Assembly: GCA_021463465.1 (NCBI GenBank)
Contig: JAJTYH010000002.1
Span: forward strand, 201,799-265,798
Reading direction: 5' to 3'
DNA: 64,000 bases
Source of the DNA: a bacterium
Lineage (GTDB): Bacteria > Patescibacteriota > Dojkabacteria > SC72
Shown here one piece after another: positions 10,154-31,522 of this stretch. The position numbers and the translations under genes are program-made. Position 1 is the stretch's first letter, and every line of letters begins with the position of its first letter. The notes beneath the pieces are model-generated. The model saw only the letters and a program-made list of their open reading frames with translations, had not been told where the DNA came from and did no database searches.

Positions 10154-10171
10154 TATTTTTTATTGGAAAAC

Positions 10172-13100
10172 ATGTTAGCAGCACCTGGACGAGGAGAACT
10201 ACCAAGCTTTGAAAATCTAAATATTTCTCCAGAGAGCGCTGAAGAGTTAGGGAGAGATTTACGTAAAACTTTAGAGGCACTTGTAACTGGTTTCACTGGT
10301 GACTCTGGAGCAGCAAAAAAACTTCTCGAGAGTATGCTTGACCCGCAAAAAGAGCAAGCAGAGGGAAAAGTTCCAGAACGAACTAATGCTACACCTCTTT
10401 TGTCTGAGCAAAAGGGTGTGAAAAAGGTAGATAATGGACTTGAAATTGAAATTACTTCACCTGCGGTCAAGGAAGCTTTCATTGGCCCAAATGGGCGATC
10501 ATTGACAGAAGATATGTTCCAAGTCATCGCAGGAAGAGAAACGCAGGTAAGTGCCGCAGGTAAACCAGGAAATCTAAACTCGGGTCTTAGTGAAGTTAAA
10601 TCTGTCACTTTAGGCGGTGCCAATGTGAAGACAGGCTTTGATAGGTTAGAGCTTTCTAAAGGTGGTGATAAAGGATCTCCAAATGGTAACGAAGTTCTTA
10701 CTTTTGTAAAATTAGATCCAGAGGGGAAACCTGACCCAAAGAAGTCTGTCTCGATAAGAATTGAGAGAACTCAAAACGATACTAGTGGCATCCCTGATTC
10801 CAAAGTAATACTTTCCTTGGGCCTCCAAGAGACAAGTAACGCTATTACAGATAGTATTGGTAATATTCCAACGCGTTTATCACAAGTTGAATATTTACTG
10901 AAATTCAAACCGGATTTATCACTACAAGAAAAGGATGATTTGTCGGCCGAAGCCGCTTTGTTACGCGAACAGACAGTAACGGGTTTAAATGCAGAATCAA
11001 GACAAGCAAACCAGGCCTTGCTTTTTAAGGATTTGGCCTCAATTATTGCAATCGCTCGAGAAAGAGGACATTCAGTAACGTCTAGAGCTTCAATGGCTGA
11101 TTCAAATGAATCTGTTAGCTCAAGACAGTTTCAGGCTTTAGAAGTTTTCAATAGAATTATTGAGACACCTGGCTCTTTGATTAATCGATCAAAAAAAGCG
11201 GAGAAAAGAAGTGGAGACGTATCTGAAGATCAGAAGCTTTCCGACCTGAAGAGTTTTATAAATAAAGTTAGAGCCGATAGTAATGGAGAAGTTCCTGACC
11301 AAACGCCCAGGCAGGAAGTTCCAACTCCGTTAGGCGGTGAGTTGCAAACTAGCAATACTAAAAAGGAAGCTCCAAAGTCTATTGATGAGCTGAAGAAAGA
11401 TTTTGAAGGTGAACTCTCAGCAATTAAGGACTTGAGAAAGCGAAAAGAAGACTTAGAAGCAGAAATAAAAGCACTTAGTTCTGCTGATGCAGGAACCCTC
11501 TCCGTTGAAGAGAAAAAGAAACTTGAGTCTCTACAGAAGGACCTAGACGAGACAAAGCGCGGGTTAGAAATCTTAAAATCGCTTGGTGACATACAACTAT
11601 TTGACAGGAAAAAAAGTCTCAGAGATAAACTCAAAAACAGATTTCAGGATGAAATTGATTCTAGTACTGTCCTTACCCCTGAACAAATATCAAAACTCTC
11701 AGTTTCAGACTTACTTAGAATTCTTACCTTAAATGCCCAATACGCTAGCAAGAAAGATTCTACACCTGAAACAGCTGAAAAGGACAAACAGAATCTAGAC
11801 AAAATCAACGCTCTTATTGGTTTAGTCAATAGCTTCTCTGAAGCAAACCCTAATGCAGTAAAAGAGAGTAAAGGAAAAGATAAAAAGAAAGCAATCGACT
11901 TACTCACTGAGTGGTTAACTGCAAGAGAAACATCCCTAAGTACTGAAATTGACAAGCTCAACACAGCAGGAGCAACACTTGAAACAACTAACAAAGAGAG
12001 GGAAGAGAAGCTTGCAGCTTTGAAGAAGGAACTCGAGAAATTAGATGTTGATTTTGCAGCTACGCAATTAAAGGCAGCAAGTAGCTTAAGATCTCTTGGC
12101 GATCAAATCCCAACTGATGAATGGATCAAGTTAAGCAGCGCGCTGCATGAAGCTTCATTTGGTGATTTGCCAGAGAACCCCGAAGACACAAAAACAAAGA
12201 CTGAAGCCGCCGCCAATGCTTCTATCGCTTCAAATTGCCTTAGACATATTGATTTAGAGCTTGAGCAACGAATTGAGCCTGAAACTTCTAAGGTTAAGAA
12301 GTTCTTTAAACGAGCAGCTGAGGTACTTACATCTGTATTCGGTGGTATAGCCGCTCGAACAGCAGTTAAAGCTATAATAACTGGAACCCTAGGTTTAGCA
12401 CTTGGCGGTCCAGCAGGCTTATTGCTTGGTGGTGTTGCAGGGGCCTTGGCTGGAGGTGCTTCGAGTGCAATATTTAGTACTTGGATGCATTACAAGGTTT
12501 TCCACAACGACAAACTGCATGCGTTATATGCAGAGAATGCGAATCCTGGCAAATATGATTTCTTCAGATCTAGAATATTTGATAAGGCTAATGAGACTTA
12601 TGGTGTTAAAGCTCGAATCCAAAACATTGCAACCGTATACAATCAATTACTTTCGGGTCAACTAAAAGCCGATCAGTTAACACCTGATTTAGCTAAGACA
12701 GTACTGTCGGTTGTCAAAGACGCCAAGATGCTTAAAAACACCACCAATTTCATTGGTGTAAATAATCTAGGACTCGATGCGAATCTTTTCAAAAATGCTG
12801 CGGGTGAAACGGTTTTACCAGAAGATGCTTTACGAGATTTTGCTTTGAAATTTGATAATTTTGTCAACAACTCTATAAATGCAGGAAAATTAAACACTGA
12901 CGAAGTTTCAAAAGCACTTAGTGAAGCTGACAGTGAATCTAAGACAATGGTTAATGCAATGATAGCTTCAGCTTCTTGGACCAAATTCTTTAAAGGTGCT
13001 CTAATCGGAGGTGCTTCAGGCTTAATCGCACAAGGAATAGGAAATGCCCTCGAAGGAAAGGGCTTCTTAGGAACAGAAACTGGTGGGGTGACAAACTCAG

Positions 13101-15400
13101 CTGTAGGTTCAGTCACAGAATCACAAATGTCTGATGCAGATGTTTTGAAATTTAATGAAGAAGCTATGAAACGATTGGCTCCATACGGACAACAACAAGT
13201 AGCTCTCTTGCATCAAAACTACAGTAATGTTCCCGAAGCAGACTTACAAAAGATGTTTACCCAATTTGATGTAAATGGTAATGGAATACTTGAAGGCACT
13301 GAAGCAAATGCTCTAGTAGATTCACTTAATCAGTCAGGCTCAACTGGAGGTGTACCTACGTTAGTTGGTGCATGGGACGCACCTTATGATGGAAATATTT
13401 CAAAAGATGTACCACCTGAGTGGGTAGATACTTGGACCAAAGCAATCTACAATGTGGGTCGAGGACATGATTTCCATGGAGCTCAGTTTAGTATGCAGGG
13501 TGCTCCTGGAGGCGACTATTACGCTCTAGGACGGGCTTTAGATTACATGTCAAAGCATGTGCCAGCAGAGAGTATGAATACTCCCGAGGCTGGAATTTCG
13601 GTCTCCCATCTTTACGGCCACTTATTACTTGGAGGCCAACCAACCGATGCTCAATTAGCTGAATTCTTGACCAGGGTTGATGCCAAATATGAAGGTACAG
13701 ATTATGATATAAGCAAGATATTTACAGGTTCAGGTGAAGCAGTAACATCTTCTACAACCAATTCATCTGCATTGATTGCAGGAATGAACCAAATCACAAC
13801 GGCGGCCCAAAATGATGTAATGACTCTTTGGTCATCAATGGCTGAGAGCCCAACTATAACTGAGACAGTAAGCAACTCAGTGGCTAATTTTGTTGTTGAT
13901 ACCACAAAAGGTATAAATGAACTTGGCACTTCAGGTGCATTGGCAGGAATGGGTGTTTCTATGTGGCTAGCAAATATGTACACACCTGAGAATAGAGAGT
14001 ATGCCAAGGTGAAAGAGGCTGGCAAAGAAGGAGATAAGTCCGGTACACCTCCAGCAAATCAACCGGGAAATAGTTCAACTTCTGCAGGCTCAACAACACA
14101 AAAGGCAAATAACACACCTGGTAGTAACTCTGCAGACCAAACAGTTGAGACAGCAAACCGAAACAGTGGTCTTACAGATATCTCAGCCGCAAGTGCAAAA
14201 CAAGGAAGTGAATTGAAACCTTTTGGTAAAATTGAGTCTGCAGGAGTAGGCCTTTCTGCTGATAGTGAGAATACTAATCCAAATGTGGTAAATATTAATG
14301 CAGCAAACGGAAGATTTGTGGCATCAACCCCAGTATGGGTTAAGTCGCAAACAGGAAATGTCTCACAATTTGCCTACAGGCATCCAAGATTGGCTGAACT
14401 CTACAAAGAAGTTCTTTATATCGGCAATTTCATCAAACAATACGCCAAAACAACTGTTGGAATGAATAATGATCCTTTTGAGGCCCAAGTACTTGCAGAT
14501 ATTACAAAGTCAGTAGCTGCAAATGATAAGTATGCAGTAAGGAGACACGATGGAGGGGCCGTAAGCGTTGCGAGTTCACAGGTATATAACCTTGATCCCT
14601 ACAGAGCAAGAAAAAATGAACTCACGGCTGGACAAAACTTAAGAGAATTAAATGAAAGTGTTCGCCAGCCATTGGCCAAATTCGTCAAGAAAATGCTTGA
14701 GGTTGAATTTGGTGCAGGTGGATTAGGTCAGCAACACTTAGGTGATATTGATAGGGGAGTTCTTGATCTTTACATGAAGGATGGCGGCGAGAAATATATT
14801 AATAATGAGCAAGTACACGCATTCTTAGCTCTGCTTATGGTGTTGAATGATCCTGAAAATATGGAACCTAAATCCAAGTTCCTAAATCAAAAAGGTACAC
14901 AAGAATTCAATGGAATTGTAAATGTAATGATCTCTAGAGAGAGCGCATGGATGTCAATGTTATCACCAAAACTAAACGGCCAAAATTACCTAGGCTCAGC
15001 ATTCTTAGTGTCTGACGGAATTATTAGATCTGCACTTGAAATGAGCGGATATAATGTAAAGCCAGACCAAAGAGAAGCCCGACAGTACTTTACAAACGTG
15101 GATCAAATTGCGAGATCAGTAGCGTTGGTTAAAGGAGGCTCACCGTATAGTAATGCTCTGCAGTTAGTAAATCTTGCTAATCAAAACGGGGTAGAGTACT
15201 TCGCTCTAATGCGCGAAGCCACAGCAAAGGCACGAGCAGAAAAGAAAGGAAAGAAGAAAAAGCAACAGCAACAGCTAAATGATGCCGTAAGTGCAGTCCC
15301 AACAGTTACACCACAACCTGGCGAGGCCTTGCAAGATGAACCAGCACGTGAAGCAGTAGTAGTTGGAACGAACGAGCCAGCAGGTACAGATGAGATCTAA
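10172..15400 (+). CDS. Giant (1742-aa) multidomain protein with a coiled-coil region, a glycine-zipper membrane segment and a canonical EF-hand
   Basis: The track ORF begins on TTG at 10163; the first ATG is at 10172. Long heptad/KE-rich stretch (~aa 380-640). GxxxG-rich hydrophobic segment TGTLGLALGGPAGLLLGGVAGALAGGASSAIF. EF-hand loop DVNGNGILEGTE flanked by helices. Lys/Gln-rich C-terminal tail. Confidence 0.7.
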   Translation: MLAAPGRGELPSFENLNISPESAEELGRDLRKTLEALVTGFTGDSGAAKKLLESMLDPQKEQAEGKVPERTNATPLLSEQKGVKKVDNGLEIEITSPAVKEAFIGPNGRSLTEDMFQVIAGRETQVSAAGKPGNLNSGLSEVKSVTLGGANVKTGFDRLELSKGGDKGSPNGNEVLTFVKLDPEGKPDPKKSVSIRIERTQNDTSGIPDSKVILSLGLQETSNAITDSIGNIPTRLSQVEYLLKFKPDLSLQEKDDLSAEAALLREQTVTGLNAESRQANQALLFKDLASIIAIARERGHSVTSRASMADSNESVSSRQFQALEVFNRIIETPGSLINRSKKAEKRSGDVSEDQKLSDLKSFINKVRADSNGEVPDQTPRQEVPTPLGGELQTSNTKKEAPKSIDELKKDFEGELSAIKDLRKRKEDLEAEIKALSSADAGTLSVEEKKKLESLQKDLDETKRGLEILKSLGDIQLFDRKKSLRDKLKNRFQDEIDSSTVLTPEQISKLSVSDLLRILTLNAQYASKKDSTPETAEKDKQNLDKINALIGLVNSFSEANPNAVKESKGKDKKKAIDLLTEWLTARETSLSTEIDKLNTAGATLETTNKEREEKLAALKKELEKLDVDFAATQLKAASSLRSLGDQIPTDEWIKLSSALHEASFGDLPENPEDTKTKTEAAANASIASNCLRHIDLELEQRIEPETSKVKKFFKRAAEVLTSVFGGIAARTAVKAIITGTLGLALGGPAGLLLGGVAGALAGGASSAIFSTWMHYKVFHNDKLHALYAENANPGKYDFFRSRIFDKANETYGVKARIQNIATVYNQLLSGQLKADQLTPDLAKTVLSVVKDAKMLKNTTNFIGVNNLGLDANLFKNAAGETVLPEDALRDFALKFDNFVNNSINAGKLNTDEVSKALSEADSESKTMVNAMIASASWTKFFKGALIGGASGLIAQGIGNALEGKGFLGTETGGVTNSAVGSVTESQMSDADVLKFNEEAMKRLAPYGQQQVALLHQNYSNVPEADLQKMFTQFDVNGNGILEGTEANALVDSLNQSGSTGGVPTLVGAWDAPYDGNISKDVPPEWVDTWTKAIYNVGRGHDFHGAQFSMQGAPGGDYYALGRALDYMSKHVPAESMNTPEAGISVSHLYGHLLLGGQPTDAQLAEFLTRVDAKYEGTDYDISKIFTGSGEAVTSSTTNSSALIAGMNQITTAAQNDVMTLWSSMAESPTITETVSNSVANFVVDTTKGINELGTSGALAGMGVSMWLANMYTPENREYAKVKEAGKEGDKSGTPPANQPGNSSTSAGSTTQKANNTPGSNSADQTVETANRNSGLTDISAASAKQGSELKPFGKIESAGVGLSADSENTNPNVVNINAANGRFVASTPVWVKSQTGNVSQFAYRHPRLAELYKEVLYIGNFIKQYAKTTVGMNNDPFEAQVLADITKSVAANDKYAVRRHDGGAVSVASSQVYNLDPYRARKNELTAGQNLRELNESVRQPLAKFVKKMLEVEFGAGGLGQQHLGDIDRGVLDLYMKDGGEKYINNEQVHAFLALLMVLNDPENMEPKSKFLNQKGTQEFNGIVNVMISRESAWMSMLSPKLNGQNYLGSAFLVSDGIIRSALEMSGYNVKPDQREARQYFTNVDQIARSVALVKGGSPYSNALQLVNLANQNGVEYFALMREATAKARAEKKGKKKKQQQQLNDAVSAVPTVTPQPGEALQDEPAREAVVVGTNEPAGTDEI

Positions 15401-15431
15401 CTTTGGCTTTTTAAAAGTTTTAGGATCGAAA

Positions 15432-15457: not shown

Positions 15458-15461
15458 GATA

Positions 15462-15491: not shown

Positions 15492-15565
15492 ACACTCGTA
15501 ATATCTTAGAATATTACAATCTGCTCTTTTAAAATGCAGTACGATAATAAGATTTCTGTGAGAGC

Positions 15566-15618: not shown

Positions 15619-15665
15619 TAATATCCAAAATCTTCAAGTGCCAAACACCACAAAGGAGGTCGTCA

Positions 15666-16084: not shown

Positions 16085-16112
16085 CAACCGAGTCAGCGTA
16101 CTGCATTCCCGT

Positions 16113-16141
16113 GGGGAAGCTCTCTTTTAGAAAGCTTCCCC
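16113..16141 (+). terminator. Rho-independent terminator
   Basis: ggggaagct-ctcttttagaa-agcttcccc, a perfect 9-bp stem, followed by a gttttgtgttt T-rich run. Confidence 0.65.
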
Positions 16142-16198
16142 CGGGTGTACGTTTTGTGTTTACATATATCAATATGTTTAGTATTTTTATATGTAAGT

Positions 16199-17425
16199 AT
16201 GAAATCACCTACTCACGAGAGTACAAACAAAAACCCTCGCCATATTGAGAAAATAGGGTTAAAAGCTGAAGCAACAGAAAGTTCACCAAACATCGAGACG
16301 GGACTAAGACTTTTAGGATCTGGTTTTGAAGGCGATACTTATGAATACAGGGCGAGAGATGGAAGTATTAAAGCCATAAAGGTTTTCAGACCTCGTGGGA
16401 AGGTATGGGATGACAACTATCATCAAGAGTTTGATGCTGCAGACCCAAACGACCCGAGAGAATTATCCAAAACAATATTTCGTGCAGCACATACAGCGAG
16501 ATGGGCAGATCGAATACAACATCCAGCACATCTGATTGAGGAGATTAACAAGCTCGATGACGAACTAATGGCGACAGGATCGAGTGCGTATAATATTCGA
16601 ACTCTACAAGAATCCTTTGCTAGGGTAGGTGATTTGAACACTAATGGCTTTAGAAATTATTTAACCCAAAGAGCATTAGCCCTGGGACAAAGGATTTTTG
16701 TTCCTGAAATAAATATTGACCCAAATTTCAAAGGTGGATTAGGCTCAGCGATTAATCGTTTAGTCGAATGGACAAGTACTAATTATCCTCAATTACAGCT
16801 GCCTAAAAGAATATTTCCCAGATTCATACAATTTGGAAAGTTTCCTGAAGACTATCCAAATCTTAAAGTCGCTGGAAGAGAGTATTTAGTTATGGAGAAA
16901 GTGCACTTGATTCTTGGTGACTATATAGAAAAGACTCAATCCAAAATACTTTCAATGGGCAGTATTTTATCTGATAGCCCTGAAATAGCTCAAGTTCAAC
17001 CCCTCCCAATCTCGATTCAACAGATTGCCGGAACTAGAACGAATCTAGAAATTTTAGCTTCTCTAGGATTAACCTTTGGTGATTTAAAATTGGGTAACAT
17101 AGCCTTTGACGCAGACAACACTCCAATTCTCATTGACCCCACTGCGGTGCTCAAAACTGGAAGTATCCAAGATATTGCTACTATGGACTACCTCCCTCCA
17201 CATGTTCAAGCACAAGTAAGAATGATGCAACCAATCAAGGGAGATCCTCAAAACGATATTTATGCTTTAAATCGAATACTTTCTATTATACAGCAGGAAT
17301 GGATGCAGGCTGTAATGCAAGGACTAAGAAAGAATACGCGTAATATAATGCATGATGAGAGGGTTGGGACAGAAACAGCCTCAACAATGCTTCAAAACTC
17401 AAGAAGAAATCAAAATACATTATAA
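16199..17425 (+). CDS. Protein-kinase-like (PKL) superfamily protein, atypical
   Basis: Track start is GTG at 16145; the first ATG is at 16199. LGSGFEGDTYEY (GxGxxG loop) with AIK lysine 14 aa later. FGDLKLGNIAF resembles the HRDLKxxN/HGDxxxGN catalytic loop; IDP may be the DFG-equivalent. The spacing between the Lys and the catalytic loop is unusually long. Confidence 0.45.
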   Translation: MKSPTHESTNKNPRHIEKIGLKAEATESSPNIETGLRLLGSGFEGDTYEYRARDGSIKAIKVFRPRGKVWDDNYHQEFDAADPNDPRELSKTIFRAAHTARWADRIQHPAHLIEEINKLDDELMATGSSAYNIRTLQESFARVGDLNTNGFRNYLTQRALALGQRIFVPEINIDPNFKGGLGSAINRLVEWTSTNYPQLQLPKRIFPRFIQFGKFPEDYPNLKVAGREYLVMEKVHLILGDYIEKTQSKILSMGSILSDSPEIAQVQPLPISIQQIAGTRTNLEILASLGLTFGDLKLGNIAFDADNTPILIDPTAVLKTGSIQDIATMDYLPPHVQAQVRMMQPIKGDPQNDIYALNRILSIIQQEWMQAVMQGLRKNTRNIMHDERVGTETASTMLQNSRRNQNTL

Positions 17426-17429
17426 AAAG

Positions 17430-19346
17430 ATGAGAAACTTTATCAAACCAACAATCCAAAGTTTATTGGAAAATATCTTCGAGAAATCTCAGCTTAAACA
17501 AATCCGTGAATTTGCTGAAAAAGAGCCTCTACTCAATCTAAAAACTCAAAAAACCGTATTTCCGGGTTCAAAGGAGACAGGAAAAGAAAATGTTGTACTG
17601 CCAGAAGTTGAGGTAACAACAAATCTTCCATTAAGTCATGACAAATTGCTACTAAACTCCACAGGGCAAAATGAGTGGCGAAGAGCTATTGGCTTTAGTC
17701 CATTGAATACACCTCAAACCAGAGAACGCATTGATAAGGGAGCAATGGTTATGGTTGTGAAATCAAAGGATGTCACAGCAATTGGAGTTAACCGACCCTC
17801 CACGCTAACATATCATCTTCCGCAAGATGCAAGTGCTATTTCTATTATGGAAGTTGACGGTGAATCAGTAATTGGTCTCCAGGTGGCAGATGGTACGACA
17901 TTCTTGGAGCTTGGAGATACAGAAATTCAAGCATGTAAGAGGCCGATTACAGGTGGAGATAAAATTACAAATCGCACTTCAAAAGTTCATTGCGATAGTG
18001 ATAGATGGGCGCACTTTGTTGCAAGAACTTCTGCGACAATAGGCTTACAAGGAGCTCAAAAGGGTTCAGGAACAATCAAAGGGATCTCGGAGAGTGACAG
18101 AGATAAGCTCGTGGAAGAAAATGGGGTTGGATCTTCAACCGCGCAATCATTATCAATTAAACGTACTGAAAAAGGTTATCATGCTCAAATAGTTGGGACA
18201 GGGGCAGAAAGAGATTTTGGCCAAATCTTCGTTGGGACTGACAAAAGAGCTGACCAGCTTGCACTTCTACCAAATATGGAAAATATTAGCCCCATGAATT
18301 CTAGCTCAAGGGTGCTTGGACTGGTTGGGAGGGAGCGGCTAATCCAACCAACTTTGGATGCCGATTTCGAAGCGGGCACTGCTTTTATTCTGACCTCTGA
18401 CGGTTTTTCACTAAAAAGTCCTCAAATAGGAGAGCTTTTAATCGATTATGCAAAAAACAAAACATCGGAACAGATTATACAAATTCTTCAAGACGCAAAA
18501 ATGCTTGATCTATTATTTGCGCACCCAGATGGAAAGAGACCCGCAAAAGACGATGGAACTCTTTGGTTAGTACTCCTTAACGACCAGGAAAAAGCTCAGT
18601 CTGAAGTTAATCAAAACTTACTCTTAGATGATTTACTTCATAAGGCCAAAGCTCTGTCAAACCTTTTTCCCAAAGCAGCAGAACAGATAAATAGAAGATT
18701 AGAAGAAATAAGGGCTCTTACTGATGAGATACTTCAATGGGTGGAATCAAGAACAAGTGACAGTGTAAGTGTAAATGATTTAAAAGATATTCAAAAAGCA
18801 ACTGAACAGGCCTTAGCAGCTGAAGCAGAACAAAAGGAACTAGAAAAAGAACTGGAATTAGTAAATGAAAGCAAAGTTCTTTTACAACATCATACCCTTA
18901 GTAATCAATATTACTCTGCGGCAATGCTAGATACAGTCGTATCGTTACGCAATGTTATAGGAACTGGAGAAGTTACGAGTAAAATTCTAGCGGAGTGCAT
19001 AGCTACTATTTCATCCGCCTTAAATGGTAACAAGAATATTAAAATTACCAATCAAAAACTCGTAAAGGTTGTTTTCGACGAGTTACTCGAAAAGAGACTA
19101 GCAATAACTAAAGAAGAGAAGTTTTTTGAAACTTTGACCAAATGGATTCAAGATCCTTCACAAGAAAATACTAAGGCTCTGAAATCGCAAATAAGTATTT
19201 CTCTTCCTCATTTAAATTCACTCACTCGCATAATACATAGCGAAGAAGATCAATTTAAAACTAAAGAGTACTTGTATTACTTAGAATATTCAAAAAAATT
19301 AGTACCTACTTGGAAAAACTTAGTAAATACCAAAATTAACGACTAA
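17430..19346 (+). CDS. PP2C-like phosphatase-domain protein with a C-terminal coiled-coil
   Basis: Track ORF begins at 17352, overlapping the upstream gene; an in-frame ATG at 17430 follows that gene's stop. AFILTSDGFS (LASDG-like motif) and DDGTLWLVLL (DD.TVIVV-like terminal motif). A long helical/KE-rich tail follows. Confidence 0.4.
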   Translation: MRNFIKPTIQSLLENIFEKSQLKQIREFAEKEPLLNLKTQKTVFPGSKETGKENVVLPEVEVTTNLPLSHDKLLLNSTGQNEWRRAIGFSPLNTPQTRERIDKGAMVMVVKSKDVTAIGVNRPSTLTYHLPQDASAISIMEVDGESVIGLQVADGTTFLELGDTEIQACKRPITGGDKITNRTSKVHCDSDRWAHFVARTSATIGLQGAQKGSGTIKGISESDRDKLVEENGVGSSTAQSLSIKRTEKGYHAQIVGTGAERDFGQIFVGTDKRADQLALLPNMENISPMNSSSRVLGLVGRERLIQPTLDADFEAGTAFILTSDGFSLKSPQIGELLIDYAKNKTSEQIIQILQDAKMLDLLFAHPDGKRPAKDDGTLWLVLLNDQEKAQSEVNQNLLLDDLLHKAKALSNLFPKAAEQINRRLEEIRALTDEILQWVESRTSDSVSVNDLKDIQKATEQALAAEAEQKELEKELELVNESKVLLQHHTLSNQYYSAAMLDTVVSLRNVIGTGEVTSKILAECIATISSALNGNKNIKITNQKLVKVVFDELLEKRLAITKEEKFFETLTKWIQDPSQENTKALKSQISISLPHLNSLTRIIHSEEDQFKTKEYLYYLEYSKKLVPTWKNLVNTKIND

Positions 19347-19406
19347 TTTACTTGTCCATACCACAAGAGTATAATCCCTCAATAATTACAAAAAACAATT
19401 AAAGTT

Positions 19407-21011
19407 ATGGCACCAAGACCCATAACTGCCCCACTAGAATTAGTTTCCCAGTTAGAGCAATTCAAAGAACACACACGTAATGGTGAAGATTTAACTGCAG
19501 AAGGTTTGACTACAACAATAAAAGCTTTTTCAAAAGCTATAAAGGTTGGATTTGAGGGTGCATCTGAATTCCTTTCAGAAGAAGCTGAACTTTCAAGAGA
19601 TGAGTTTTTCGCGGAGTATGTGCACTGGAGCGACAATGTTTTAGCCCTGGCCTTAAAACAAAAAGGAATAGACAGAGTTCTGGTTTCCACTCCAACGGGA
19701 ATTCAGGGCGCCGGTAAAGGAACATACGGTGACACTCTTCAAGTACTTGCACAGGAACTTGTCGAAGAAATGGCGTCTGGACAACCTAAAAAATACAAAC
19801 AACTGGTTACTCAACCTGACGCAATCACAGAGAAATGTGTTGCCCGAGCGAGATCACAAGAAGTAAAAACGGGTACAGGAGGAATTTTTAACCATAAAAA
19901 CACAAGATCTGAGATAACTACAGACGAAGAACGCGAATATTTCGATCTCTTCAATGATATGAAAAATGCAATGGGTGCTGCAAAGGGCGTTTTTGTAGAG
20001 AACAATATTGTAGCCATTGCATTAAACCTTTATATGGCATTAAAAGTAATGCAGAATGAGGAAGGTATAAGTTCATTCAATATCGACCTCTATCCAAGAT
20101 CTCAGCGTCAGATTGAACTTTTAGAACAGACAACTGGAACACTCCAAGACAACGGGATAGTCCTTGAACATAGCACTATTGATTTTAAACTCCTCAATGA
20201 AGAACAGGTCCAACAGTTACTAAGATACAAAAACAGCGCTCTTGCAATTCTCCCAAAGGTACAAGAAGGTTTTACAACTGTAATTAAAAGGGTCGAAGAA
20301 GTATTTAGAAGCCACTCAGATGATTACACCTTTGATGAACTACGAAAAGATCTGACCGGTATTATAATGAGTGCTTCAGAAGGCGAAACTGATGCAATGA
20401 GAGCAGCTGAGTTGATGCTAAATGAGTGTTTAAGTGCAGCAAATAGAACAGAAAAACGTGGCAAAGAGTCCAAACGACCAGACGATCGTCCAATACCACT
20501 CCTAAAACGATTAAAAGATTACTTTGCCAAGTCATTTGCCATACCATTCCTATTCGAAAACCCTATGATGTTTGCCACAGACTACAAACCCGAAGAGGTT
20601 GCAAGAAAAGTCTTTTGTAAGTATTTCAGTATTGAACATTCTGCACCAGAACTTCAAAATGGCGGTAAGTACTATGATCTTTACAGAAGATACCAATACT
20701 TAGCCGCATGCAAAGTGTATGGAGAGTTTAAAGGTGACTTAGAGCTCAGACAAATAAAAAGGGAAAAGCCTGATTCAACTGAGTTGATTTACTGGGGAGA
20801 AGCTGGGAATGTAATATTTTATTCGTTCATTCAAAAACCTGGTGGTAACTCAGTTATGTACACAATAGGACATAAAGGAACTACTTTTACAGAAGATATC
20901 CCAGGATTAGCTAATACACTTAAGCTAGAAATTCCACAAACCCAAACAATTGCTGAGTTTATTGAGAATAATCCTCCACTTTGGTATCAACTAGAAGGTA
21001 TCTTCATTTAA
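19407..21011 (+). CDS. P-loop kinase-like protein (GxxGxGKGT Walker A, adenylate/nucleotide-kinase-like)
   Basis: STPTGIQGAGKGTYGDTL P-loop; the rest is unrecognised. Convergent 8-bp overlap with the integrase. Confidence 0.45.
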   Translation: MAPRPITAPLELVSQLEQFKEHTRNGEDLTAEGLTTTIKAFSKAIKVGFEGASEFLSEEAELSRDEFFAEYVHWSDNVLALALKQKGIDRVLVSTPTGIQGAGKGTYGDTLQVLAQELVEEMASGQPKKYKQLVTQPDAITEKCVARARSQEVKTGTGGIFNHKNTRSEITTDEEREYFDLFNDMKNAMGAAKGVFVENNIVAIALNLYMALKVMQNEEGISSFNIDLYPRSQRQIELLEQTTGTLQDNGIVLEHSTIDFKLLNEEQVQQLLRYKNSALAILPKVQEGFTTVIKRVEEVFRSHSDDYTFDELRKDLTGIIMSASEGETDAMRAAELMLNECLSAANRTEKRGKESKRPDDRPIPLLKRLKDYFAKSFAIPFLFENPMMFATDYKPEEVARKVFCKYFSIEHSAPELQNGGKYYDLYRRYQYLAACKVYGEFKGDLELRQIKREKPDSTELIYWGEAGNVIFYSFIQKPGGNSVMYTIGHKGTTFTEDIPGLANTLKLEIPQTQTIAEFIENNPPLWYQLEGIFI

Positions 21012-22281
21012 GCGGATGCTTATCTTTGTGAGTATCTGAAGCAAATTTGTCAGATGCATGCACATACCTTGTTGTTGTATTAAGGCTTTCATGACCTAAC
21101 AGGACTTGAATTGCAGCTGGATTAGCACCATTTTCAGCCAAATATGTAGCAAAGCCATGCCTCAGACTGTGAGCTGAAGTGGGAACTAAAATACCCAGTC
21201 TACGCCTATACTGCGCGATTTTCTCTTGAAAGTAGTTTGAAGATATTCGCATATTTTCTTTCTTTTTTCCTCTTCCAGAGAATGGAATAAACAGAGCAGG
21301 GGAGTCAAACTTCGTAAGGAAGTTATTTTTCCTAAAGTCTTCTACTAGAGCTATAAAACGGTAGGAGTGATTTCCATCAGAAACAGCGGCCATCAGCTCA
21401 GAGCCTTTCAATGTTTCACGCTCCGTGTCATGAATATGCTTTAAGCGCACTTCTAAATACTTATCTAACCAACTCATGGCCCTTGGTGTCATGTATACGA
21501 AACGTTGCTTTTTCCCTTTACCTAAAATAAAAAGCTTACCATCCAAATTTACTTGATCCAAGTTAAGGCCAATCAGTTCTGAAATACGCATACCTGTTGA
21601 AAAAAGTAGCTCTAGCATTGCACGATTGCGCACACTTACTTCATAATCCTTTTCAAATTCGCTCGGTGCTTCAATTAAGCTAATCAATTCATCCAGCTCA
21701 GCAACCTGAGACTTTTTCTTCTCAGCCTTAATTAGTTTAATTGCATCCGGCGCAATTGGAATTTCTAAATCTCTATCAATTCTAAATTTTAAATACGAAC
21801 GAATCGCAGATAACATTCGATTCACACTTCGAGCATCCAAACCCGTAGTCGACCTCGCGGAAGCGTTTTGGGGTTTGTTTGACATTCCCAGACTGCCAAA
21901 GACTTTTTTATATACATTATCGAGAAAACCAGGCTGATCCATAGGTGTTGTTAGAGCACCTGATACCTCTTCATCGCTTTTAGGGCCATCGTAGCCCGTC
22001 GCTGGACTTTGTACCGTACTATCAAGCTTTCTAAGACTTTCAGCTCTGAATTTATCCAAATCTTTCAAATGTTCGCCACTTCGAAGATAACCTTTATAAA
22101 TAGTAATCTCTTCTTTGGAGAGTTTAAGGAATTGGACATCTTTGAAATGTAAAAAGACTGCAAAGATAGATAGGTCCCTGGCATAGTTGAAGACTGTCTG
22201 CATACTGTAGTTATTATTCTGAAGATCTAAAAGGAATTTGTCCTGTTCTGGTAGCTTAGGGATTGTTATGTTTTTGGACAT
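21004..22281 (-). CDS. Tyrosine site-specific recombinase / phage-type integrase
   Basis: ARSVNRMLSAIRSYL (Arg I box) and HSLRHGFATYLAENGANPAAIQVLLGHESLNTTTRYVH (box II, HxxR...Y catalytic tyrosine). N-terminal SAM-like core-binding region. Confidence 0.9.
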   Translation of the reverse strand: MSKNITIPKLPEQDKFLLDLQNNNYSMQTVFNYARDLSIFAVFLHFKDVQFLKLSKEEITIYKGYLRSGEHLKDLDKFRAESLRKLDSTVQSPATGYDGPKSDEEVSGALTTPMDQPGFLDNVYKKVFGSLGMSNKPQNASARSTTGLDARSVNRMLSAIRSYLKFRIDRDLEIPIAPDAIKLIKAEKKKSQVAELDELISLIEAPSEFEKDYEVSVRNRAMLELLFSTGMRISELIGLNLDQVNLDGKLFILGKGKKQRFVYMTPRAMSWLDKYLEVRLKHIHDTERETLKGSELMAAVSDGNHSYRFIALVEDFRKNNFLTKFDSPALFIPFSGRGKKKENMRISSNYFQEKIAQYRRRLGILVPTSAHSLRHGFATYLAENGANPAAIQVLLGHESLNTTTRYVHASDKFASDTHKDKHPLK

Positions 22282-26502: not shown

Positions 26503-27336
26503 TCACTTCCAAAGCTCTCTATCGTAAAGAGCTAGAAACTCCCGATGTCTAGAACCTTTTGGCTGGTCACTATGAATCAATTGAACCCCGCTAGCGAGAT
26601 AAAGATAAGGAAGCATCTGTGAGTATTCCAAGTCAAAACGGGAAATATAAAGCCTATCCAGCCTTACTAACCTCTTACCCACTTCATACAAATTTCTGTA
26701 GAAAGTTGGTACATGACCCGGAGCATCCGAGACCACAGCCGTAACAGCCGTCATAGCTATATCTAAAAGATGATTACCCGAAAAGGCATCACTCCAATCT
26801 AAAATATAGATTCCGTTATCTTGATTAACAATTAAGTTTCCGTGATGGAAGTCCCCATGACACAAACAAACCTTATGAGGACGGCTTAGAGTCTCTAACA
26901 TTCTATCTTTCTCAACATCACTTAACTCCTTTGAAGCTTTAATCTCCGGACTGATTTTATCCCACTGTGAAAGAATATCTACTTCAATATTTGCAAGTGT
27001 TGAATGTGCCTCTGAGACTTTACGAACCACGTCAAAGTATGTCCAGGGTTTTCTCATCAATCCATTCATCAAAGACTCTCCAGTAACGAATTCAAAGATA
27101 ATGCCACGCTTACCTTCTGTCTGAATAAGTTCTAATGGTGTCGCGACGTTCAAGTCCCCTACCTTCGAGATTTTCAGAGTTTTCTCAAACTCTTCTGTTA
27201 TATAACTTTCGGGAACATCTGCGTTATACAGTTTGACTGACTCATTCTTACTGAAACGAAAAACAGTGGACCTACGACCGTGATCAATAATTGGAAGTTT
27301 ATCCAGTAGCTCCTTCGAATCTAAATACTTACTCAC
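26503..27336 (-). CDS. Phosphotransferase (APH/choline-kinase-like) family protein
   Basis: LCHGDFHHGNLIV (HGDxxxxN brace/catalytic loop) and ILDWSDA (metal-binding Asp). Confidence 0.7.
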   Translation of the reverse strand: MSKYLDSKELLDKLPIIDHGRRSTVFRFSKNESVKLYNADVPESYITEEFEKTLKISKVGDLNVATPLELIQTEGKRGIIFEFVTGESLMNGLMRKPWTYFDVVRKVSEAHSTLANIEVDILSQWDKISPEIKASKELSDVEKDRMLETLSRPHKVCLCHGDFHHGNLIVNQDNGIYILDWSDAFSGNHLLDIAMTAVTAVVSDAPGHVPTFYRNLYEVGKRLVRLDRLYISRFDLEYSQMLPYLYLASGVQLIHSDQPKGSRHREFLALYDRELWK

Positions 27337-29893
27337 CTCTATCCTTTCCCTCCTCTACTACTGGAACTATATCGTTGGACTGTTCTTCTACAACCATCAG
27401 TGGATTTACAGGATTATCAACAACCATAAGATTATCCTTGAGCTTGTCATGTCTTTCCCTGCGTCCCTCTTTTGGGCCAGATTTTACTTCCAAAGACCTA
27501 TTACCTTTTTCACTATATTTCTGCTCACTCCATCTCTTAATCTTATCTTCTATTGTCTCCTGATCAACCGAATACTGCTGCCTGCTCGAAGCTACAATTT
27601 CATTCTTTAGCCCAAATTTCTGGTATCGGAGATCCAAAGATTTAGCACTAAAAGGCTTTGACGTCATTCCGTTAATACATAATTTCACATAGATTGAATG
27701 TGCCTCGAGCGAAACTAAATCTTCTGCCTGGAATATTGGTGCGAATTCATTAGCTAAAATGGAAGCGTCAGATTGCGAAACAACAAAAGATGCCAACGTT
27801 CCAACGTTACCAAAAATAGCTTGTCTGACGGTCAAAGGTAACTGGTCAATATACTGGTTAGTCATTGTAAGGTTTAAGCGGAATTTGCGCGCTTCAGACA
27901 GAATCTTTGCAAATGAATCTGTAGCAAAGTTCTGGAACTCATCAACATATAGGAAGAAGTCTCTTCGTTGATCTATAGGTAAATCTACCCTCTCCATTGC
28001 AGTTGATTGGAGTCGAGTAATTATCATTCCTCCCAAGAGTGCGGAACTTTCCTCTCCCAACTTACCTTGAGCCAGATTAACCAAGAGAATTTTCCCTTCG
28101 TCCATAATCTTACGCAAATCAATAGTAGATTTAACTTGACCGACAATATTTCTTATAACCGCCGAAGAAAGAAATCTTCCAACCTTGTTTTGAATAGGTG
28201 CGATAGCTTCTGTAACTAGCTTAGGGTTTTGTGACATCTGAGCATACTCTTCCTCCCAGAATTTCGTAAGGATTGGATCTTTGACCTGTTTAAGAACGAA
28301 CTTGCGGTAGTTACGATCCATCAACAGTCTGATAACAGATAAGAGGGTCGTTCCTTGCGCCTCCAGAGCTGTTGCTACAGTGTTTGTAAGCAGATATTGC
28401 AATCTAGGACCCCATGAGAAGTCAAACTGCTTCTTGAACACTTCAACCACGCCATCAGCCACCAAATCTCGTTGAGCTGGATCGTTAAGTTGTAACAAGT
28501 TGAAACCTACTGGATATTTTGAATCTCCTGGATTAAAGTACACTACATCCTTCAGTCGATCCTGGGGAATGTAGTCCAAAAGTTCGTCAACAGTATCTCC
28601 ATGCGGATCAATAAAGCAAGCTCCATCCCCTGCAAGAATGTCAGATATAAACATATTTTTAAAGACTGTGGACTTACCTACACCAGTTTTACCCAATATA
28701 TAGAAGTGTCTACGTCTGTCTTCTCGTCTAATACCAAATTGTATCTTCTGGCCACGATAATCCGTTTGCCCAAAGACATTCACATCATCCATTCCCGAAA
28801 CTGGCAAGTCCATAGGGGGTTCAGCCTTACGTGCCCTACTCCAGATAATATTTGGTGTCTCTACTGAGATGTTTGGAAGATGGTAAACCGAAGCTAACTC
28901 CTCAATGTTTAGAATATCTGGAGTATCCTTTTCTAGGAACCTACTAATGTATTCATCATACATCTGCTCTCCACCCTTACCCTGATCACTATGAATAAAG
29001 CTATTAAGATGAGCAGTTGTAAACTGTTTAAATGATGCAACTACATCCCGCAAAATCTGTTCGGACCTTAACTGGTCTCCTGCCTTCGTCACCACCCTAA
29101 TTCCTACATCGAAACCTAACTTGAGCATCTTTGTTTCAACCTGTGTAAGTTCTTCCTGTTGACCTGGAGCCAACTTAACCACGTCTTTTTTAACTGCAGC
29201 ACCGTCAGTACTAGTCTGCAAGCTTTTAGCCATTGCTCCAACAAACCCTGAAATCATATCCAAAAGACTTTTACCACCTAATGATTCACCTTCCTTTATA
29301 GCTGTGATGTACTTCTTGGAGGCTTCCTGCCAATAATTGGACACTGGACGCACAATAAGCTGCACCCAAGCCTCTTCACCTACTTTAAGTCCTGAAATAG
29401 CAGAAGTAATTGCAGAAAGTGGATCTACTTCAAAATTCCTAAAAGTCTTTATCGGGAAAATGTAATCTTTGTCATACTCTATTACACCTGTGGAAACATA
29501 TACCTGCCCTTCTGAGCGCACCTGCGTGTAATCTGATACCAAACGAATCTCTGCATTAGGATACTGTGCATAAATCTGCCCTTCAACAAATTTCACTAGA
29601 TGGTCAGGAGCAACAGCAAAGAATCGGATCCCTCCCTCACCTGTTGAGACAATTTCAAATGAAATCATATCCATAGATTTCTTGCTATCACGCATAATTC
29701 CGTGAAGTGAGGAAAACATCTGTTCGGCAGCTAGCGGCGTCTTATCATTCTCTCTTGGAACCAGAATCTGTAGCACTTGAAGGTTACGAATACTTTCAAA
29801 AACATTCACTGGTTCTGGCTTTTTGCCCACCGTAAAGACAAACACCAGAAAAAGTGCTGAAAGGACGAGTAGTAGGAATATCAACCCAACCAT
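27329..29893 (-). CDS. Membrane-anchored FtsK/HerA-superfamily ATPase, VirD4/TraG/TrwB coupling-protein-like
   Basis: N-terminal TM plus ~380-aa unknown domain. Walker A ILGKTGVGKST, DPHGD motif, Walker B FFLYVDEFQNF. ARKFRL...TNQYIDQL matches the TraG-D_C/arginine-finger region. Confidence 0.6.
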   Translation of the reverse strand: MVGLIFLLLVLSALFLVFVFTVGKKPEPVNVFESIRNLQVLQILVPRENDKTPLAAEQMFSSLHGIMRDSKKSMDMISFEIVSTGEGGIRFFAVAPDHLVKFVEGQIYAQYPNAEIRLVSDYTQVRSEGQVYVSTGVIEYDKDYIFPIKTFRNFEVDPLSAITSAISGLKVGEEAWVQLIVRPVSNYWQEASKKYITAIKEGESLGGKSLLDMISGFVGAMAKSLQTSTDGAAVKKDVVKLAPGQQEELTQVETKMLKLGFDVGIRVVTKAGDQLRSEQILRDVVASFKQFTTAHLNSFIHSDQGKGGEQMYDEYISRFLEKDTPDILNIEELASVYHLPNISVETPNIIWSRARKAEPPMDLPVSGMDDVNVFGQTDYRGQKIQFGIRREDRRRHFYILGKTGVGKSTVFKNMFISDILAGDGACFIDPHGDTVDELLDYIPQDRLKDVVYFNPGDSKYPVGFNLLQLNDPAQRDLVADGVVEVFKKQFDFSWGPRLQYLLTNTVATALEAQGTTLLSVIRLLMDRNYRKFVLKQVKDPILTKFWEEEYAQMSQNPKLVTEAIAPIQNKVGRFLSSAVIRNIVGQVKSTIDLRKIMDEGKILLVNLAQGKLGEESSALLGGMIITRLQSTAMERVDLPIDQRRDFFLYVDEFQNFATDSFAKILSEARKFRLNLTMTNQYIDQLPLTVRQAIFGNVGTLASFVVSQSDASILANEFAPIFQAEDLVSLEAHSIYVKLCINGMTSKPFSAKSLDLRYQKFGLKNEIVASSRQQYSVDQETIEDKIKRWSEQKYSEKGNRSLEVKSGPKEGRRERHDKLKDNLMVVDNPVNPLMVVEEQSNDIVPVVEEGKDRGE

Positions 29894-29935
29894 AGTAGTA
29901 GATAATAGCGAATATCGGTATTTTGTACAATCAAA

Positions 29936-31159
29936 TTACTTCCAGACTGCCTCTACTTCCATATCCTTACCCAACACTACAACAATGTCTGCGGTAGTCA
30001 TAAAATCAGGTCGGGAATGAACGGTAGTAGACGGTACTACAATAAGTTTTTTAACCACTTCAAGCGATTTAGGGAAAGTTTCAGGTTTAGGGACATACAC
30101 GACAGTATGATCTTGTGGCGAAGGTGCATTCTCATACCTAACAACATCAACCCCTGAGTTTTGGAATTTTCGGAAATATCTGCTGGCTAACCCTTCAATC
30201 TCACTAGCATTGTATACCTCTATCTTAACCTGCTCGCGCTCAATATCCCTGCCCTTAAGATTTTTTACTATTTCTGAAAGTTTTTGATCCACCTGACTGT
30301 AATTAACTAGGTTAATATCAAGACCTGAGGATGTTTTAGATGCGGTTGTAGCCCACAGTTGTCCCAAATCAACCATATGTAGTTGAGAAGAATTCAACGT
30401 AGTTTTAAGCTCATCAATCTTAATCAAAAGATCAGCAAGTGAAAGATTTGTACTTATTCCCTGAATTAAATGCTTGTATTCATTCTGATTCATGACCAGC
30501 TTTAGAAATGAGAACTTATCAAAAACCGAATTAATGGTAAATGATGGCTCAGTCATAAGATCTCCTTCTATATATAAGGAGGAATAGTTAGACTTTTCAA
30601 ATTCTGATACATCGCCAAACATATGTGAAAATGCTGTCAAAGAATTTGAATCAAACCAGATATATGAATCAGGCGTCATACCTGTAAGGTTGCCTAACTG
30701 CCAAACCGCATACTCTATCTTCCTGGGCTGAGAAATCGTATCACCAACAAACTTCAAATCCCCGACTGACACATACTCAGAAATCCTGTTAAGATATTCT
30801 CTCATGTATACCCTCGGAGGTATTGAGTAAACCACAACAAAACCACTTCTTAAATTCTTAACTATATACCAAGCACCCAAAATCTTGGACTGACCATTGT
30901 CGTCCAAGACAACTAATGTGCTAGTTAGATCATCTCGAGTTATCATCAGCTTTGATTTTGCCTCATCAGAAAGGCTTTTTTGCGGTTTTGCTTGCAAAAA
31001 ACCATATGACCAATAGCCAGCGATAGCTAAAAGTATCGCGAAGAAGGTTGATAACACAAAAGTAATAATCACTCCCCACTTTTTTTGTTTTTTGACAGAC
31101 CCCACTCCCACTCGACTTAACACTCGGCTATGACTTCGTGCAGTAATTTTTTTAGACAT
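29936..31159 (-). CDS. Membrane-anchored extracellular protein, LytR-CpsA-Psr (LCP)-like
   Basis: N-terminal TM. ITRDDLTSTLVVLD...VVYSIPPRVYM resembles the LCP RxDT...SIPRDTYV core. Same strand as, and upstream of, the ATPase. Confidence 0.4.
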   Translation of the reverse strand: MSKKITARSHSRVLSRVGVGSVKKQKKWGVIITFVLSTFFAILLAIAGYWSYGFLQAKPQKSLSDEAKSKLMITRDDLTSTLVVLDDNGQSKILGAWYIVKNLRSGFVVVYSIPPRVYMREYLNRISEYVSVGDLKFVGDTISQPRKIEYAVWQLGNLTGMTPDSYIWFDSNSLTAFSHMFGDVSEFEKSNYSSLYIEGDLMTEPSFTINSVFDKFSFLKLVMNQNEYKHLIQGISTNLSLADLLIKIDELKTTLNSSQLHMVDLGQLWATTASKTSSGLDINLVNYSQVDQKLSEIVKNLKGRDIEREQVKIEVYNASEIEGLASRYFRKFQNSGVDVVRYENAPSPQDHTVVYVPKPETFPKSLEVVKKLIVVPSTTVHSRPDFMTTADIVVVLGKDMEVEAVWK

Positions 31160-31522
31160 GACTAACTACATAATAGGCCATATATTTGGGCAAAACAACA
31201 CACCCTATAACCTAAGTGCCACCGTTTCACCCCCCCCGACACCACATACTCTCCACCCTTCGGTACCGTTACCGTAAAGTTACGAGACAGGGTCGCTGTA
31301 CTGAAACTTACCAACTACGTAAATACTTATCACCCCTACCCTCTCCAGGTTGATTCGTCAGTAGAAACAATATCTAAACTAGAATATCCAAGAACAATCC
31401 GCAGTTCAAATAATGTACTCTCCAAAAGTATCCTTTTGTAACGGCGTTTAGGGATTTAGCACTATTATCAACGTATCCCCTTCTAAACTATCTTCTCACC
31501 GAAGAGTTTACCTATAGGAAAA

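Follow-up and report, generated by a model that had tools for sequence, protein, structure and literature searches.

The window analysed here (the whole 64,000-nt stretch of contig JAJTYH010000002.1, from a bacterium of the Dojkabacteria) encodes an 854-aa membrane-anchored ATPase, which is the Dojkabacteria member of a chromosomal, catalytically intact and phylum-wide family of Patescibacteria and not a singleton. In architecture, it is best described as a membrane anchor to which a domain resembling the VirB4 N-terminus and a motor of the VirD4/TraD type are joined. The identity of the ATPase, its architecture, its intact catalytic site, its core-genome status and the lack of adjacent type IV secretion system (T4SS) genes are secure, and for this window the outcome is mostly deflationary, the arrangement being typical of the phylum. 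Patescibacteria, which account for much of bacterial diversity, are epibionts with tiny genomes; since the family is present in ~96% of their genomes and is flagged as both 'core' and 'Patescibacteria-enriched', it likely serves something central to their lifestyle. New here are the predicted VirB4-like fold of the N-terminal domain, a sigma-r4/HARE-HTH genomic partner instead of T4SS genes, and a split form of the family consisting of two genes.

Both open reading frames (ORFs) on which a previous sequence-only reading of this DNA had centred, that of the ATPase and that of a 407-aa ectoprotein encoded upstream of it, are present, together with all the motifs quoted for them (Table 1). Hydropathy and Pfam also bear out its description of the ATPase as having a single N-terminal transmembrane (TM) helix, an uncharacterised N-terminal domain of ~380 aa and an ATPase domain of the VirD4/TraG/HerA superfamily. 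Residues 2-22 are the sole segment exceeding a Kyte-Doolittle value of 1.6 and are followed by GKK, so that everything past the helix (~830 residues) is predicted, under the positive-inside rule, to lie on the cytoplasmic side. Besides the Walker motifs, DPHGD (aa 429-433), ARKFRL (aa 668-673) and QYIDQL (aa 680-685) were located in the motor, while a conserved EPPxNLP motif (aa 358-364) closes the N-terminal domain. The C-terminal tail has no Pfam match and differs in length and sequence among Dojkabacteria orthologues, and the GC content of the gene is that of its surroundings.

In Pfam, the ATPase matched TrwB_AAD_bind over aa 391-686 (E 6.6e-8) and DUF87/HerA over aa 387-609 (E 2.1e-6). 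The Pfam set used for our own scans was without PF26449, and the N-terminal 380 aa were consequently left unassigned there; protein P0001, which is identical to the window ATPase, carries precomputed assignments to PF26449 (DUF8128), PF10412 and PF01935. NCBIfam gave partial and far sub-threshold matches to TraD, CD1115-type VirD4, CedD and HerA models, the best being SXT_TraD (35.6 bits against a cut-off of 366) and CD1115 (24.7 against 250), and VirB4_plasma reached 16.3 bits against a cut-off of 590. The best PDB sequence match was TrwB, and sequence and profile searches of the PDB returned only matches of the Walker A region (TrwB, DotL).

A total of 3,479 homologues of the ATPase were found at E<=0.001, so that chance can hardly account for the ORF and its motifs. 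The best 120 of these are 67-100% identical to it and carry precomputed PF26449 and PF10412, and the named ones among them belong to Candidatus Dojkabacteria or candidate division WS6; identity within Dojkabacteria is 67-82%. With the N-terminal 388 aa as query, phmmer returned 2,392 representatives at 50%-identity clustering (1,220 at E<=1e-10), many of them 800-1,100 aa long and others ~410-490 aa. Scanning a single genome for each GTDB species revealed >600 loci matching the ATPase, for which full-length identities of 37-45% were noted overall, and 80 of which were fetched and underlie the neighbourhood and identity counts given below. The proteins of these 80 loci align with the window ATPase over almost its full length (roughly residues 1-800) at 35-69% identity, and they come from Dojkabacteria, Saccharibacteria, Nomurabacteria, Peregrinibacteria/Peribacteria, Gracilibacteria, Buchananbacteria, Uhrbacteria, Magasanikbacteria, Falkowbacteria, Doudnabacteria, Moranbacteria, Shapirobacteria and Microgenomates, among others.

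In an alignment of 54 diverse family members, residues G401, G406 and K407 of Walker A and D651 of Walker B are invariant, and at least 90% of the sequences share E652, F653, Q654, R669, K670, Q680 and Q684. TrwB_AAD_bind matched 52 of the 54 members, TraG-D_C 50 and T4SS-DNA_transf 28. FtsK_SpoIIIE matched 11, weakly (best E 2.8e-5), and not the window protein itself; FtsK membership, which the sequence-only reading had named as a result that would refute it, was thus not found. By these sequence profiles, the motor belongs with the coupling proteins of T4SSs (T4CPs).

The N-terminal domain appears to point in another direction. The full-length AlphaFold2 (AF2) model, which was built with Dojkabacteria sequences only, was mediocre, with a mean predicted local distance difference test score (pLDDT) of 66. 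Foldseek against the PDB nevertheless placed full-length R388 TrwK/VirB4 chains first, with E 2e-12 over ~880 aligned columns; HerA (5e-9) and TrwB (8e-8) came after them and covered the motor only. A model of aa 1-372, for which 21 diverse family members were aligned, reached a pLDDT of 84.6 and a predicted template-modelling score (pTM) of 0.78. All 14 of its Foldseek matches at E<=1e-3 were TrwK/VirB4 chains (best E 1.3e-7, ~410 aligned columns, TM score 0.40-0.45), and the next match was an unrelated protein at E 6e-3. Judging from these models, the N-terminal domain of ~340-350 aa is probably folded like that of VirB4.

Compared with known T4CPs (VirD4, TrwB, TraD and PcfC), the ATPase is alike in possessing a membrane-anchored P-loop motor of the FtsK-HerA superfamily with Walker A and Walker B, in the TrwB_AAD_bind, TraG-D_C and T4SS-DNA_transf matches across its family, and in a gene that often lies apart from virB4. 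A further likeness may be the helical insertion between Walker A and Walker B, which is modelled by AF2 as an all-helical stretch at aa ~472-586 with a pLDDT of ~50; VirB4 likewise carries a helical insertion at this place. Unlike T4CPs, the ATPase has one TM helix and not two, an extra, apparently VirB4-like domain of ~340 aa before the motor, and a core chromosomal, phylum-conserved gene instead of a mobile-element one, and relaxase or T4SS neighbours are lacking in the window and in the 80 loci. All its NCBIfam scores for T4CPs are far below the cut-offs, whereas the domain-level cut-offs of Pfam are passed.

Similarity to VirB4/TrwK/TraC lies in the two-domain layout and the overall length (~800 aa), with R388 TrwK as the best structural match whether the whole model or just its N-terminal domain is compared. 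As well, the N-terminal helix recalls VirB3-VirB4 fusions, which carry an N-terminal membrane helix. In contrast to VirB4, CagE_TrbE_VirB matched none of the 54 members, P-loop_TraG only four and AAA_10 rarely and weakly, hhalign against F-plasmid TraC, a single F-type target, stayed at probabilities of 17% or below, and no VirB3, VirB6 or VirB8 gene is adjacent in the loci covered. With FtsK/SpoIIIE, the ATPase would share a membrane-tethered ring motor of the same superfamily and a neighbourhood of recombination or division genes; it differs from them in the missing FtsK_SpoIIIE match on the window protein, in the lack of a gamma (KOPS-reading) domain, in having one TM helix against about four, and in a different N-terminal domain.

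Relatives of the motor were also detected in IMG/VR, at 22 loci (L089-L110) on putative viral or mobile-element contigs. Most of them are motor-only proteins of 385-460 aa, such as L089:7956-9254, with 37-51% identity to the window ATPase over its aa 371-788, and no DUF8128, HTH or LytR_C genes were detected in the 22 loci. The annotated neighbours in L089 and L097 include an M23 peptidase, a PLD nuclease, a PD-(D/E)XK nuclease, an integrase and a second FtsK-like ATPase. The presence of motor-only relatives on contigs resembling mobile genetic elements supports a coupling-protein ancestry of the motor, and suggests that the chromosomal family arose by domain accretion.

Some members of the family come as two separate proteins, similar to TrsD (VirB4-N-terminal-like) and VirB4 of pGO1. 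In 17 of the 80 loci (L053, L054, L056, L057, L062, L064, L066, L068, L070-L073, L075, L077-L079 and L085), belonging to Uhrbacteria, Magasanikbacteria, Falkowbacteria, Buchananbacteria, Doudnabacteria, Moranbacteria, Parcubacteria and other Patescibacteria, the gene is divided between two ORFs, one for DUF8128 (415-488 aa) and one for the ATPase. The split point mostly lies a few codons past EPPxNLP, which corresponds to aa ~365 of the window protein, at about window position 28799. All 17 pairs share one reading frame, with one to three in-frame stops and 0-90 nt between the two ORFs, and ATGA or TAATG overlaps never occur. The tandem in-frame stops make read-through of the split genes less likely, and the split form may be what nonsense mutations that divided the gene have left behind. 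Four loci (L014, L016, L065 and L072) possess two full-length copies of the DUF8128-ATPase in tandem or nearby, ~35% identical to the window protein, for instance L014:2894-5440 with L014:7983-11060 and L016:1128-3587 with L016:3587-6163.

Pfam detected no VirB4, VirB6, relaxase or pilin family on window ORFs of at least 120 aa; about a dozen window ORFs match nothing and could include a divergent VirB6 or pilin. A Walker A scan of all window ORFs retrieved this ATPase, an ABC ATPase, DnaB, RuvB, YchF and one chance match in a phosphorylase. Both scans agree with the sequence-only reading that the window is devoid of T4SS partners and of a relaxase; it holds no competence genes either. According to Quinonero-Coronel et al. 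2025 (PMC12102498), 5,713 homologues of VirD4-type T4CPs are distributed over 2,918 of 3,035 Patescibacteria genomes (96%), and 148 of the 5,713 lie near virB4, while VirB4 itself occurs in 2,417 of the 3,035 genomes and in 18 of 20 classes. Both Dojkabacteria genomes looked up in Table S1 of that study are marked 'Yes' for VirB4, and the typical pattern in its Table S3 is one 't4cp1' match per genome, flagged as not near VirB4. The Patescibacteria T4SS cluster was reported to hold a distinct, bona fide VirB4 plus TrsD, and exaptation of the T4CP was suggested by the authors, since the homologue of Southlakia is not essential (PMC12102498).

With such prevalence and so rare an adjacency to virB4, the orphan state of the ATPase within 64 kb is normal for the phylum, and the earlier description of it as an orphan that does not match described systems has to be given up for membership of a near-universal Patescibacteria family. 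The 'orphan T4CP' phenomenon is thus already published; in the literature searched, the family had been counted only as a 'T4CP homologue', maybe an 'exapted' one. Because VirB4 is found in 2,417 genomes, including both Dojkabacteria looked up, a T4SS is probably encoded at another locus of this genome.

In most other classes of the candidate phyla radiation, the conserved partner of the family is a DNA-binding protein of ~350 aa with Sigma70_r4 and HARE-HTH domains. Its gene is located directly upstream on the same strand in 40 of the 75 loci having an upstream gene, with a median gap of 42.5 nt to the DUF8128 gene, in Saccharibacteria, Buchananbacteria, Doudnabacteria, Falkowbacteria, Moranbacteria, Parcubacteria, Peribacteria and others (e.g., L017:6748-7782, L019:6886-7944, L078:6761-7846 and L054:3062-4222), and in the Nomurabacteria locus L032 it lies one small ORF further upstream. 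No homologue of this protein was found in the whole 64-kb window, and the LytR_C gene takes its slot in Dojkabacteria-lineage loci. Genes at position -1 in Saccharibacteria that first appeared to be 'paralogues' were rejected as a single-linkage artefact of a read-through ORF in L034; they are HTH proteins.

The wider gene context depends on the class. In the window, genes for an APH-type kinase, YebC, RuvC, RuvA and RuvB follow downstream on the same strand, and a pseudouridine synthase gene of RluA/RluD type lies upstream. Saccharibacteria have Der, Pth, DprA and TopA upstream and FtsQ-like, FtsW, MraY and FtsI downstream on the opposite strand (names assigned by eye), the ABY1-type classes have SecD/SecF upstream of the family gene, and Peregrinibacteria/Peribacteria have RuvX (YqgF) directly upstream (L045:7417-7842, L055:7298-7813). 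RuvX is of a Holliday-junction-resolvase family, and its position echoes the RuvC/RuvA/RuvB linkage in Dojkabacteria.

Transposon sequencing data bear on the counterpart in Southlakia epibionticum ML1, where the gene order is DprA (0298), TopA (0296), a hypothetical gene, SEML1_0294 and SEML1_0293 (PMC10633639 Table S1). Since this order matches that of the Saccharibacteria loci, and in view of its annotation, SEML1_0293 is presumed to be the Saccharibacteria counterpart of the ATPase. SEML1_0294, annotated as 'RpoS', is a 349-aa protein with Sigma70_r4 and HARE-HTH and is essential (PMC10633639). SEML1_0293 is flagged as 'core family' and 'Patescibacteria enriched', and its normalised reads fell ~4-fold, from 5,817 to 2,940 and 1,372 (PMC10633639 Table S1), while neighbouring non-essential genes stayed flat by our own reading of that table. 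Another Southlakia protein of similar layout, SEML1_0142 (1,019 aa, P-loop domain at aa 381-800), is essential (PMC10633639), and so is the T4SS cluster of this organism, which is without a recognisable coupling protein or relaxase. The interest that remains in the family lies in its hybrid VirB4/VirD4 architecture, its HTH partner, its split variants and this essential protein of similar layout, and the genetic tractability of Southlakia makes it testable whether the motor docks on a T4SS, moves DNA or acts on the chromosome.

The reading that we tentatively prefer, while holding it to be somewhat doubtful still, is that the ATPase serves a distant T4SS. A family member would, as its VirB4, VirD4 and HerA relatives do, form an ATPase ring anchored at the cytoplasmic side of the membrane, and ATP hydrolysis would serve to recruit a substrate, either nucleic acid or nucleoprotein, or to push it towards a channel in the membrane. 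We infer the ring assembly and the action on such a substrate from the VirD4/TraD type of the motor, from its DNA-binding partner and from the DNA-metabolism genes in the neighbourhood. The most likely channel would be a VirB4-type T4SS encoded at a distant locus, with the VirB4-like N-terminal domain as the docking surface; this reading is favoured since such a domain would lend itself to docking and no coupling protein is recognised in the T4SS cluster itself.

Several observations weigh against service to a T4SS. A T4SS gene adjoins the family member in none of the 80 loci, VirB3, VirB6 and VirB8 never being adjacent. SEML1_0293 is non-essential at all time points (PMC10633639), though the T4SS of Southlakia is essential, relaxases are almost absent from Patescibacteria (PMC12102498), and by arithmetic on the published counts (PMC12102498) at least 501 genomes have a T4CP homologue and no detected VirB4. 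Sequence conservation of the ATPase is unusually high for a T4SS component, and it has one TM helix where VirD4 typically has two. The VirB4-like fold of the N-terminal domain comes from Foldseek at TM scores of 0.40-0.45; hhalign of the N-terminal and full-family profiles against F-plasmid TraC and TraD (NC_002483), single F-type sequences, left the N-terminal domain unmatched and gave the motor only a Walker-A-level match (probability ~17%). Ring assembly, substrate and docking are, moreover, all inferred.

Some of these points would fit a membrane-tethered translocase of chromosomal DNA independent of any T4SS, acting alone or with the HTH protein in segregation, dimer resolution or recombination at the division site as an analogue of FtsK, SftA or SpoIIIE, an explanation which we consider unlikely yet worth serious attention. 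It would account for the housekeeping DNA and division neighbours of each class, namely DnaB, YebC, RuvC, RuvA, RuvB and a 425-aa tyrosine recombinase in Dojkabacteria, DprA, TopA, FtsQ-like, FtsW, MraY and FtsI near the gene in Saccharibacteria, and RuvX in Peregrinibacteria-type loci, as well as for a prevalence of 96% of genomes against 80% for VirB4, the high sequence conservation and a DNA-binding protein as partner. The non-essentiality of SEML1_0293, with mild fitness loss, beside an essential T4SS is also in its favour; mutants of the FtsK motor or of SftA are likewise non-essential with a mild loss of fitness. However, the motor is VirD4/TraD-like by profile, with the weak FtsK_SpoIIIE matches confined to 11 of 54 members, Ftsk_gamma is not among the 25 of 27 matched families listed for these members, and a multi-pass membrane domain is missing. 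In addition, the class-dependent contexts may only reflect a core-genome location, and at least one Saccharibacterium (TM7x) was reported to have a gene called ftsK.

A bolder proposal along this line, which we would regard as speculative and rather unlikely, is that the DUF8128 ATPases form a third, Patescibacteria-specific branch beside VirB4 and VirD4, a hybrid that combines an N-terminal domain of VirB4 type with a motor of VirD4 type. This branch would be independent of T4SSs and, together with the HTH protein (essential in Southlakia), would build a membrane-tethered machine handling DNA in segregation, repair or DNA exchange with the host, and it would have been re-wired beside a pseudo-LCP protein in Dojkabacteria.

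It is improbable that the ATPase is instead the motor pulling DNA through ComEC during transformation, the role of ComFA in Firmicutes. Patescibacteria are naturally competent via type IV pili and ComEC according to the literature, dprA lies near the family gene in Saccharibacteria, NCBIfam gave a partial match to the archaeal DNA-translocating ATPase CedD, and the non-essentiality of SEML1_0293 fits that of a comEC deletion. The CedD match, however, covers the Walker A region only (24.7 bits against a cut-off of 600), and no competence gene is adjacent in Dojkabacteria or the ABY1-type classes. Linkage of dprA and topA is common in bacteria generally, and the proximity of dprA may be incidental.

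The sequence-only reading had regarded the ATPase as paired with the 407-aa ectoprotein encoded upstream of it. Their genes lie on the same strand, 42 nt apart. The 407-aa protein consists of a very basic N-terminal tail of 28 aa, one TM segment (aa ~29-51), an ectodomain and LytR_C, and 36 homologues with 30-56% identity were detected, the named ones belonging to Dojkabacteria/WS6 or the 'Patescibacteria group'. Compared with the 67-82% of the ATPase, this identity indicates that the 407-aa protein evolves far faster. Its layout of short cytoplasmic tail, single TM segment, ectodomain and C-terminal LytR_C is like that of actinobacterial CpsA-type LCP proteins, and it is unlike LCP enzymes in lacking a PF03816 match above threshold, a PDB match to LCP structures and an invariant Arg. 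PF03816 was unmatched on the window protein and never above threshold in its orthologues: sub-threshold matches occurred in two of 35 orthologues (E 0.074), and the orthologue of the deep branch L018, which aligned with the family profile in hhalign over aa 64-401 (probability 96%), gave E 0.0026 over aa 85-160 (18.4 bits against a cut-off of 24.6). A PDB sequence-profile search with the 407-aa protein returned no LCP structures.

The catalytic residues of LCP enzymes are Arg and Asp, which bind the pyrophosphate-lipid substrate, and across the 35 orthologues no invariant or near-invariant Arg or Lys was found in aa 55-300. The position of the canonical LCP motif 'SIPRD' reads SIPPRVY in the window protein and IPGW in the consensus. 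From its sequence, the ectodomain is probably a degenerate, non-catalytic LCP-type fold followed by LytR_C. Membrane anchoring and an LCP-like architecture, as described earlier, hold for this protein, whereas the LCP domain itself is weakly supported; the label 'LCP-like' can plausibly stand for a remote resemblance, yet the protein is not an established member of the LCP family.

On the proposed pairing, the LytR_C gene occupies position -1 in every Dojkabacteria-lineage locus with an upstream flank, at gaps of 9-126 nt, and even L018, with an ATPase 40% identical to that of the window, keeps the order MBL-DnaB...RluD-partner-ATPase. In all other classes among the 80 loci, no LytR_C gene adjoins the ATPase, so the pairing is conserved across relatives only as far as the Dojkabacteria lineage reaches. 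There it is embedded in a longer block of DnaB, zinc-ribbon protein, hypothetical protein, RluD, LytR_C protein, ATPase, YebC, RuvC, RuvA, RuvB, hypothetical protein and tyrosine recombinase, and since this whole block from DnaB to the integrase is syntenic, the adjacency is not specific to the pair and represents lineage-specific synteny rather than a defining partnership. A functional unit of the two proteins, as once proposed, is therefore not borne out, given also that the HTH protein is the neighbour in 40 of the 75 loci.

Consequently, a stand-alone export or uptake device made of the ATPase and the LCP-like ectoprotein, serving for example export of the giant 1,745-aa protein encoded in the window or cell-cell transfer, seems very improbable to us. 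Both proteins are membrane-anchored, they are adjacent on one strand throughout the Dojkabacteria lineage, and the giant ORF (1,720-1,745 aa) is also syntenic in Dojkabacteria. Against this stand, besides the absence of the pair from all other ATPase-carrying classes, the wider synteny, the faster evolution of the partner and its lack of conserved LCP catalytic residues, the opposite locations of the two proteins: the bulk of the partner is extracellular and that of the ATPase inside, with a 28-aa tail as the only cytoplasmic part of the partner. The giant protein is encoded on the opposite strand ~12 kb away with no link to the ATPase, and no evidence was found for its export.

Finally, a decaying remnant of an integrated conjugative element, which the T4CP-type domains, a tyrosine recombinase 5 kb away and the mobile-element relatives of the motor might have indicated, is effectively refuted by the intact ORF with invariant catalytic motifs, by 67-82% identity across Dojkabacteria inside conserved housekeeping synteny, by a GC content equal to that of the surroundings, and by the 'core' and Patescibacteria-enriched flags of SEML1_0293 (PMC10633639).

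Table 1. Features of the ATPase gene and of other genes in the window (window coordinates).
Feature	Position	Strand	Basis or remark
854-aa membrane-anchored ATPase, DUF8128 + TrwB/VirD4-type family	27329..29893	-	ORF, translation, Pfam
ATPase, N-terminal transmembrane helix, aa 2-22	29828..29890	-	Kyte-Doolittle; AF2 helix 2-22
ATPase, cytoplasmic N-terminal domain (predicted), aa ~30-365, Pfam DUF8128	28799..29806	-	AF2, Foldseek, phmmer
ATPase, VirD4/TraD-type P-loop ATPase domain, aa ~385-790	27524..28741	-	Pfam, PDB TrwB sequence match, Foldseek, AF2
ATPase, Walker A GKTGVGKS, aa 401-408	28670..28693	-	Motif scan, family alignment
ATPase, Walker B region FFLYVDEFQ, aa 646-654	27932..27958	-	Motif scan, family alignment
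ATPase, variable, charged C-terminal tail, aa 791-854, probably disordered	27332..27523	-	pLDDT <50 from aa 787
407-aa type II membrane protein	29936..31159	-	ORF, hydropathy, Pfam
407-aa protein, LytR_C domain PF13399, aa 310-399	29963..30232	-	E 1.5e-11; 35/35 orthologues
407-aa protein, ectodomain segment aa ~75-177, possible degenerate LCP-fold remnant	30629..30937	-	Sub-threshold PF03816 in orthologues
APH/choline-kinase-type phosphotransferase	26503-27336	-	Overlaps 3' end of ATPase gene by 8 nt
Giant 1,745-aa protein	10163..15400	+	No Pfam match; ~12 kb from ATPase

Some further features of the window and its relatives were noted. The slot of the phosphotransferase gene is variable, other Dojkabacteria having a PemK toxin gene on the opposite strand or nothing at this place. 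A non-coding spacer of 363 nt (31160-31522) separates the pseudouridine synthase and LytR_C genes; it is present in L001 and absent in L003 and L008, had no Rfam match at E<=1, is unconserved in relatives and has a folding z-score of -1.4. A promoter and terminator scan of 25.5-32 kb gave counts at or below the shuffled expectation. The ruvCAB block is ended by a long tyrosine recombinase of 425-476 aa (window 21004-22281, minus strand; L001:17184-18464; L003:16762-18192). On the plus strand, window 8038-21011 carries ORFs without a Pfam match, of ~385, 115, 153, 1745, 139-162, 408-426, 636-664 and 534 aa, and another Dojkabacteria genome (L003/L004) possesses a giant ORF of 1,720-1,739 aa at the equivalent position. 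As well, the DnaB encoded at L018:331-2967 is 878 aa long, compared with ~440 aa elsewhere, which suggests an intein or other insertion.

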